Counted from the first letter of the stretch, positions 1 through 205 are shown. The stretch: DNA of 205 nt from Escherichia coli (GCF_003334335.1 NZ_QOWQ01000245.1); one strand, 5' to 3'. Notes: generated by a model from the letters alone, not told the origin. Translations and numbers: made by a program.

Positions 1-205
1 GACCCGGGCGGACCGCCGGGGCCGAAAGGTGACACCGGCCCACGTGGAGAGGCCGGACCACCCGGACCACAGGGTCCCGCAGGCCCTCGGGGAGAAACCG
101 GCCCCGCAGGTCCTGCGGGTCCCGCAGGCAGTGTTCCGGATGCCAGCACATCACAGAAAGGTGTTGTACAGCTGAGCAGCGATACCAACAGCGATGATGA
201 AACAA
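1..205 (+). CDS. Internal fragment of a phage/prophage tail-fibre protein with a collagen-like stalk (Stf-like); partial at both ends
   Basis: Frame +1 (codons starting at nt 1) has no stop codon across the window and translates to [68 protein letters not shown]. The other two forward frames contain stops (TGA at 30-32 and 195-197 in frame 3; TGA at 173-175 in frame 2). The product is biologically coherent: a strict Gly-X-Y repeat followed by a KGxVQLSS-type motif that I recognise from phage side-tail-fibre proteins. No start or stop codon is present, so the gene boundaries lie outside the window. Recognition of the motif is from memory, not a database search. Confidence 0.8.
72..129. repeat. 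Exact 13-nt direct repeat gggtcccgcaggc (72-84 and 117-129), 45 nt apart and in frame; the core cccgcagg also occurs a third time at 103-110
   Basis: Direct string comparison: nt 72-84 and nt 117-129 are both gggtcccgcaggc. The 8-mer cccgcagg is found at 76-83, 103-110 and 121-128, encoding Pro-Ala-Gly each time. The 45-nt offset is a multiple of 9. Confidence 0.9.
103..119. repeat. Inverted repeat / near-perfect palindrome cccgcagg-t-cctgcggg (8-nt arms, 1-nt spacer)
   Basis: The reverse complement of nt 103-110 (cccgcagg) is cctgcggg, which is exactly nt 112-119. It arises from encoding Pro-Ala-Gly-Pro-Ala-Gly with alternating synonymous codons (ccc gca ggt cct gcg ggt). Its existence is certain; a functional role is not demonstrated. 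Confidence 0.85.
136..204 (+). other. Coding segment for a conserved phage tail-fibre motif immediately after the collagen-like stalk ([23 protein letters not shown])
   Basis: The translated segment fits the pattern ASTxxKGxVQLSSxTNSxxET, which I recall as the conserved motif of lambdoid side-tail-fibre (Stf-like) proteins, commonly ...ASTTxKGIVQLSSATNSTSET.... This window carries a variant with V for I and the acidic stretch DTNSDDE in place of ATNSTSE. G+C falls to about 49% over nt 131-205 by hand count. Confidence 0.65.

Follow-up and report, generated by a model that had tools for sequence, protein, structure and literature searches.

The window, a 205-nt stretch of Escherichia coli DNA, codes for the terminal part of the first collagen-like domain (Col1) of a side tail fibre belonging to a P-EibA-type lambdoid E. 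coli prophage, and the fibre has the EPclC architecture. Frame 1 is open across the window and its translation displays Gly-X-Y runs. The window corresponds to residues 188–255 of WP_137466583.1 (478 aa); in it, the final 43 codons of Col1 are followed by a short linker and the first part of a Pf2 repeat. Five complete E. coli chromosomes carry it at 100% identity, one of which is that of strain JE86-ST05. The 100% match at 1234952–1235156 of NZ_AP022815.1 is located inside a CDS annotated as 'prophage tail fiber N-terminal domain-containing protein'. According to the RefSeq annotation, the gene order in JE86-ST05 is gpJ, Ail/Lom, the fibre CDS (478 aa), a DUF4376 tail-fibre-assembly homologue, and a YadA-like Eib gene. 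The P-EibA prophage has the same gene order as that around the window match; its YadA-like gene encodes the immunoglobulin-binding EibA, and its orf-401 is ~94% identical to the window. The family is rare, as at least 80% of a 601-nt query is present in only 38 of 5,426 complete E. coli genomes. In most of the homologous loci, which are designated by L numbers, a YadA-like (Eib-type immunoglobulin-binding) gene lies 3' of the fibre and assembly genes (e.g. L001:5833-7296), and the fibres therefore represent an Eib-carrying prophage group. The original P-EibA record (L006, AF151091.1) reads GPRPQG near position 1850, where all other copies read GPPGPQG. This 3-nt difference breaks the Gly register and may be a sequencing error in a 2000-era record.

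The domains of the fibre were assigned by Pfam on WP_137466583.1. PfN (PF08400) occupies residues 1–134 (E = 2.1e-42), and residues 1–91 also match the PDB chain 9e7m_Ta, 'Tail fiber protein' (E = 4e-29). Four Collagen (PF01391) matches lie over residues 135–230 (including 135–190 and 191–230) and 288–385. The two collagen domains are separated by Phage_fiber_2 (PF03406, Pf2) at residues 236–277 (E = 7.8e-16). PfC (PF06820) is absent, with no Pfam match at residues 386–478. The architecture is hence PfN, Col1, Pf2, Col2, and a C-terminal domain other than PfC, which is that of EPclC. Translation shows that Col1 has a single interruption of the type G-X-P-G-G-P-X-G, namely GDPGGPPG, which spans the start of the window. 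The features of the window are listed in Table 1.

Table 1. Features of the 205-nt window, in window coordinates
Feature	Position	Strand	Evidence
3' end of Col1 (first collagen-like Gly-X-Y domain) of a lambda-Stf-like prophage side tail-fibre gene	1..129	+	translation, genome match, Pfam
CCGG microhomology pair (35-38, 62-65) bounding the 27-nt in-frame deletion (PRGEAGPPG) of L031	35..65	+	
9-nt tandem repeat CCGGACCAC x2, GPP-GPQ region	53..70	+	TRF
Direct-repeat copy 1, GGGTCCCGCAGGC; GGTCC at 73-77 is the junction at which 63 nt of the common long allele are deleted	72..84	+	
CCGGC, right-hand junction of the 45-nt deletion of L030	98-102	+	
Middle motif copy, GGCCCCGCAGG; left partner of the 18-nt deletion of L033	100..110	+	
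CAGGTCC, right-hand junction of the 45-nt deletion of L018/L019	107-113	+	
CCTGCGGG, exact reverse complement of CCCGCAGG, in the fourth GPAG codon set	112..119	+	inverted-repeat pair
Second copy of the direct repeat, GGGTCCCGCAGGC; the 45-nt deletions of L089, L099, and L116 cross over in its 12-mer GGTCCCGCAGGC; right partner of the 18-nt deletion of L033	117..129	+	
CAGTGT, junction of the 9-nt deletion (SVA)	129..134	+	allele comparison
Start of the Pf2 repeat, which separates the two collagen domains; runs past the window end	145..205	+	PF03406

The collagen part of the window is dense in short repeats. Reading of the sequence and a repeat finder both confirm the exact 13-nt direct repeat described by the initial annotation, whose two copies lie 45 nt apart from start to start and are flanked by different bases (A/C at 71/116 and C/A at 85/130). 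The core CCCGCAGG does occur three times, at 76–83, 103–110, and 121–128. The accompanying arithmetic is also correct: in frame 1, 45 nt make 15 codons or five Gly-X-Y triplets, and both the reading frame and the Gly register are kept. Four GPAG peptides are encoded with nearly the same codons and the Pro-Ala-Gly codon pattern CCN-GCN-GG is self-complementary, which together give rise to the dense short direct and inverted repeats. Owing to the same self-complementarity, a DNA hairpin is predicted at 72–123, formed by 112–119 together with 72–92; one single strand folds at -20.3 kcal/mol (z = -3.1 against shuffles) and the other at -22.8 kcal/mol (z = -4.3), both more stable than the shuffled sequences. 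In the commonest homologous allele, referred to below as the long allele, the repeat spaced by 45 nt is extended to a 23-nt block with two mismatches, CAGGTCC[G/T]GC[A/G]GGTCCCGCAGGC.

We estimated how often a direct repeat of at least 13 nt arises by chance in the 129-nt collagen part. Such a repeat is present in 0.2% of the sequences when dinucleotides are shuffled, in 0.75% when codons are shuffled, and in 1.35% when synonymous codons are permuted so that the protein is preserved. The 13-nt repeat exceeds only moderately the expectation from composition or from the repeated GPAG peptide alone. We also considered whether Col1 has a periodicity of 45 nt in particular, and rejected this. The autocorrelation is 0.46–0.53 at all multiples of 9 as far as 54 nt, which reflects a general 9-nt periodicity in which 45 has no prominence.

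Homologues were collected from complete E. coli genomes and GenBank phages, from IMG/VR, and from metagenome contigs. IMG/VR was scanned twice, with a 17-mer at the Col1 end and with the context of repeat copy 1, respectively, and the metagenome contigs were scanned with a gapped pattern. The homologous segment was found in 89 occurrences falling into 24 peptide classes. The commonest allele accounts for 45 occurrences, has 15 further close variants, and is 72 nt longer than the window. Indels and substitutions were mapped on 44 distinct sequences, each of which was aligned pairwise to the commonest allele, as column counts from a MAFFT alignment were distorted by mosaic alleles. Several alleles come from low-coverage metagenome contigs; the key variants, however, come from complete genomes or were found in more than one independent sample. 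The 17-mer scan of genome contigs gave 28 matches, all in unrelated high-GC genomes and close to the number estimated by chance. A protein-database survey was unfit for allele counts, being swamped by collagen words and returning only proteins of up to 350 aa that are mostly partial. Among database proteins matching the segment, most bear the label 'partial' and are encoded on contigs of 0.5–3 kb, a sign that these collagen-coding repeats may often interrupt short-read assemblies. Two of the loci, L030:2214-3398 and L032:2214-3089, are called split pseudogene fragments by RefSeq. L030 has an in-frame stop in Col2. L032 is translated without interruption from start to stop, and its pseudogene call may have arisen in annotation because the region is repetitive.

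Superimposed on the commonest allele, the simple-deletion alleles have clean in-frame indels and 0–1 point differences over 225 nt. The length differences among homologues include 9, 18, 27, 45, and 63 nt, and the repeats at their junctions measure 4–12 nt. The window allele is among the shorter ones and lies 63 + 9 nt below the common allele. Its 63-nt deletion, with the junction GGTCC inside repeat copy 1, is shared with L002, L027, L033, L071, L083, and L108. Its 9-nt deletion, which removes SVA at the junction CAGTGT, is shared with L083 and L084. The resulting peptide GSVPDAS is common only to the window, L001, L083, and L084, and nearly all other homologues have GSVASVPDAS.

The deletion of 45 nt occurs in three forms. 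L089, L099, and L116, three separate gut-metagenome contigs, lack exactly 45 nt, with the crossover inside GGTCCCGCAGGC and the junction reading ACA GGT CCG GCA GGT CCC GCA GGC/AGT GTC. L018 and L019, which are two prophages of one host (same IMG/VR genome number), have lost the same interval with the crossover resolved 9 nt upstream in CAGGTCC, and their junction reads ACA GGT CCT GCG GGT CCC... In L030, a third register is used, with CCGGC at the junction. Three distinct junctions mean that 45 nt were deleted in at least three independent events, and the two junction types of L089/L099/L116 and L018/L019 mean that this one interval recombined at least twice.

The remaining simple events are smaller. 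L031 lacks 27 nt at the junction CCGG. L033 has an additional 18-nt deletion between copies 2 and 3 of CCCGCAGG, and L090 has a 9-nt deletion that is not cleanly resolved; an exact fit of these two events requires an extra base change or a 2-nt crossover. L013 is a composite allele. A second, independent source of length change is the tandem array, in which CCGGACCAC goes from two to three copies and adds an extra GPP (9 nt) in L005, L015, L018, L019, L032, and about seven metagenome contigs. The indel endpoints are direct repeats of which one copy is kept in the product, namely GGTCC, GGTCCCGCAGGC, CAGGTCC, CCGGC, CCGG, and CAGTGT.

The initial annotation had proposed comparing homologues for length differences in multiples of 9 or 45 nt whose breakpoints lie at cccgcagg, and alleles of this kind exist in L089/L099/L116 and in L033. 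It had further proposed that slippage between the two repeat copies would delete or duplicate 15 codons. The deletion is borne out by the in-frame loss of 45 nt with three junctions. As for the duplication, the dispersed repeats showed deletions only, and no reciprocal +45 allele was found in IMG/VR, the 5,426 complete E. coli genomes, or the metagenome contigs. The complete genomes were searched for the duplication with a synthetic junction query, of which all best matches were in two pieces. The 45-nt deletion was seen in the longer parental allele and not in the window's own allele background, a result that weighs little because the window allele is rare.

We then compared the observed junctions with those available by chance. 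For the long allele, whose Col1 measures 357 nt, we listed all distinct in-register deletions of 9–99 nt; of these 1,748, 5.1% have a junction homology of at least 4 nt and 3.0% of at least 5 nt. The simple events observed have junction homologies of 4, 5, 5, 6, 7, and 12 nt. The junction homology exceeds the chance level given by the sequence. The 12-mer pair spaced by 45 nt is the second-longest in-register repeat of Col1, and an allele with the matching deletion exists.

The indels are also unevenly located. Among the 44 sequences, the PfN region (405 nt) has 39 distinct substitutions and 2 indels, and the Pf2 and linker region (171 nt) has 6 substitutions and 1 indel; the two flanks together (576 nt) hold 45 distinct substitutions versus one in-frame indel. 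Col1 has 24 substitutions, ~15 of which come from the mosaic shared by L007 and L101 described below. The simple in-frame indels of Col1 all fall at reference positions 613–752, which is where the window lies. No simple indels are found in the first 200 nt of Col1, which are Gly-X-Y to the same degree and have fewer repeated codon strings. Col2 likewise changes length in register, and in proteins sharing one C-terminus it measures 93–117 aa. The Col2 variants (L001:4300-4600 and equivalents) have PAG, (PAG)KDGTAGAEGKAGPAG (15–18 aa), and PQGPTG present or absent, and the 12-mer GGTCCCGCAGGC is found in Col2 too.

These two distributions bear on the possibility that indels arise at random anywhere, that selection for frame and Gly register alone yields the multiples of 9, and that junction homology is incidental to the Gly-X-Y periodicity. 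In-register offsets have a nucleotide identity of 46–53%, compared with ~25–30% out of register, and some junction homology is therefore expected; frameshifting indels (1, 14, and 16 nt) are confined to low-coverage metagenome contigs, as such selection would have it. However, a homology of 4–5 nt or more is found in only 3–5% of the possible deletions and yet in every simple event, and the events are concentrated in the final ~140 nt of Col1, which are dense in repeats, while sparing its first 200 nt. We regard random indels as very improbable.

It is scarcely credible that the length variants are assembly or sequencing artefacts of repetitive collagen-coding DNA. Many family proteins in the databases are indeed partial, some alleles come from contigs of 2–5x coverage, and the 3-nt difference in AF151091 violates the Gly register. 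On the other hand, the repeats are at most 23 nt long, below typical assembler k-mer sizes and read lengths, and the clean events are all exact multiples of 9. Moreover, variants are present in complete genomes (L030, L031, and L033), one variant is shared by two prophages of a single genome (L018 and L019), and a further one was recovered from three independent metagenomes (L089, L099, and L116).

Aside from the simple alleles, three sets of loci have a more complex structure. In L007 (2440-3993) and L101, the 63-nt segment that separates GPQGPAG from PRGETG is absent, and its place is taken by a divergent 99-nt collagen segment that differs in codon usage. With its 12–15 substitutions this allele is a mosaic rather than a simple indel, and it looks like a replacement from another collagen gene rather than slippage. 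In L117 (7242-7564; gut metagenome, ~4.5x), a 282-nt duplication joins the start of Col2 to Col1 at CCGAA. It duplicates the Col1 end, Pf2, and the linker, and the predicted product has three collagen segments and two Pf2 repeats; as it is known from one low-coverage contig, it could be a misassembly. In L008, L009, L010, L012, and L025 (e.g. L008:2018-3979), the module consisting of the Col1 end, Pf2, and Col2 is placed on a different and longer N-terminal region, VSVVVSGTLKSPDG..., which includes a long Ala/Ser-rich coiled coil, and the tail-gene neighbourhood is also different (DUF6682 / 'phage adaptor protein'). These fusions indicate mosaic exchange within or near the collagen region.

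Such loci raise the alternative that the length alleles result mainly from homologous or mosaic recombination between paralogous collagen tail-fibre genes of co-resident prophages, the repeats being a by-product of GPAG coding without any part in the mechanism. Genomes matching the family hold a median of 2–3 related copies, the modularity of these fibres has been ascribed to inter-prophage recombination (PMC3368898), the replacement is at one and the same site in L007 and L101, one collagen module is found on two unrelated N-terminal architectures, and the L117 duplication joins Col2 to Col1. The simple-deletion alleles, however, are 0–1 substitutions from the common allele, so that no divergent donor is visible. 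Likewise, a single donor import fits less well than repeated local misalignment with one 45-nt deletion having three junctions. Homology of 4–12 nt is also below the minimum for efficient RecA-dependent exchange. Mosaic recombination is thus an unlikely, though not negligible, candidate for the main source of the length differences.

We favour the reading that the length alleles arise via misalignment between short repeats and are filtered for frame and Gly register, to which we assign a probability of about 0.78. Short direct repeats are textbook sites of deletion. In the proposed mechanism, the short direct and inverted repeats would be the substrates for misalignment between short homologies, and the likely routes would be RecA-independent replication slippage or single-strand annealing by a host or phage recombinase. 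The DNA between two repeat copies would be removed. Only products in frame and in Gly-X-Y register, i.e. multiples of 9 nt, would survive selection, and the outcome would be tail-fibre alleles that are near-identical in sequence and unlike in stalk length. The same products would be expected from slippage, from single-strand annealing, and from unequal exchange between prophage copies, whether these are sisters or co-resident. The evidence is a comparison of natural alleles, which directly provides the alleles, the junction sequences, and the excess of microhomology; from these sequences we infer the molecular mechanism and its rate. The change probably runs from a long ancestor by deletion, because the long allele is by far the commonest and occurs with two different N-terminal architectures. 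Survivorship under Gly-register selection contributes to the pattern, and such a filter must act.

We also considered a single-strand polarity of slippage, as L018, L033, and the window allele keep the variants of the right-hand repeat copy. It was rejected because L089, L099, and L116 retain those of the left-hand copy. Regarding a contingency locus with phase variation, the sole tandem array is CCGGACCAC x2 and the clean variants are all in frame, which speaks against this class. By annotation, no reverse transcriptase with a template repeat and no site-specific invertase is present within 3–4 kb on either side of ten loci, which speaks against a programmed diversification of the tail fibre by a diversity-generating retroelement or an invertase switch there. 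The initial annotation had called the repeats a plausible route to fibre-length polymorphism, and near-identical prophage alleles with deletions ending in the repeats support this view. Its wording that the repeats could drive the variation is best understood passively, as a mutational hot spot whose products are filtered by selection.

With 0.29 nm per collagen residue (PMC3368898), the loss of 15 residues corresponds to ~4.4 nm and that of 21 residues to ~6 nm, and the Col1 domains in our sample (~89–128 aa) would measure roughly 26–37 nm. It is conceivable, though distinctly doubtful, that the repeat-dense final ~140 nt of Col1 serve to switch fibre length at a high rate, that one lysogen or lysate mixes fibres of ~26–37 nm, that exchange with co-resident prophages replenishes the mix, and that selection tunes the reach to the depth of O-antigen or capsule. 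If true, the switch would be contingency-locus-like and would act on length rather than expression. Side tail fibres help determine which cells a lambdoid phage adsorbs to, and stalk length may thereby affect adsorption and host range. The prophages bear virulence cargo, the gene for the Eib immunoglobulin-binding protein being located just downstream of the fibre here. Recurrent deletions between short repeats would account for many near-identical length alleles and probably also for the breaks in short-read assemblies, and the exact junction sequences can now be searched for.

The closest known system is the EPclC group, whose members are relatives of the N-terminal region of lambda Stf and include P-EibA ORF-401 and ECED1_1681 / ECED1_2081 of strain ED1a (Ghosh et al. 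2012, PMC3368898). The window gene resembles them in its order of domains (PfN, Col, Pf2, Col, and a non-PfC C-terminus), in the G-X-P-G-G-P-X-G interruption (PMC3368898), and in its location 3' of gpJ (and of lom where present) and 5' of the tail-fibre-assembly gene. Within the parts of PMC3368898 drawn on here, a trimeric collagen triple helix is shown experimentally only for the related EPclA. The Col lengths tabulated for EPclC are 117/75, 106/102, and 118/117 aa, and Col domains of these prophage proteins are stated to vary in length by multiples of 3 residues (PMC3368898). The allele of L018 and L019 is probably the 106/102 entry, as its Col1 of ~106 aa equals the tabulated 118 aa plus 3 aa (GPP) minus 15 aa and its Col2 has 102 aa. 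The window allele, with a Col1 shorter by 21 aa, is absent from these tables. Variation in Col-domain length in the EPclC-type family was hence already published in 2012 and is an expected property of a known family. PMC3368898 has no nucleotide-level analysis: the words 'slippage' and 'deletion' have 0 occurrences in it, and it gives no breakpoints, direct repeats, or deletion mechanism. What is added here is the junction-level nucleotide evidence and the location of the hot zone, not a new kind of system.

Earlier work has suggested that the collagen-like repeats of phage antireceptor genes act as hot spots of recombination (PMC7242381; PMC5601072), examples being the antireceptor genes of Streptococcus thermophilus phages (Duplessis and Moineau 2001) and a spontaneous deletion in phi-Sfi21. 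In the Guarani virophage, an 81-nt in-frame deletion in the collagen-like part of ORF8 was found alongside a host-range change (PMC7242381; PMC5601072). These cases share with ours the in-frame deletions in the collagen-like coding repeats of a host-recognition protein. They differ in having longer and more regular units (27 nt in Guarani) or the exchange of a repeat-flanked variable domain, whereas the window gene has dispersed microhomologies of 4–12 nt in degenerate Gly-X-Y repeats and its case is known from sequence alone.

In E. coli, spontaneous deletions between short direct repeats arise by slipped misalignment, as in the lacI deletion spectra and in RecA-independent repeat deletion. 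The lacI-type work provides measured mutation spectra, whereas the tail-fibre case consists of natural alleles filtered by selection. The tail-fibre deletions are like those of the lacI type in that their endpoints lie in short direct repeats 9–63 nt apart, one copy of the repeat is kept, and a quasi-palindrome lies in between.
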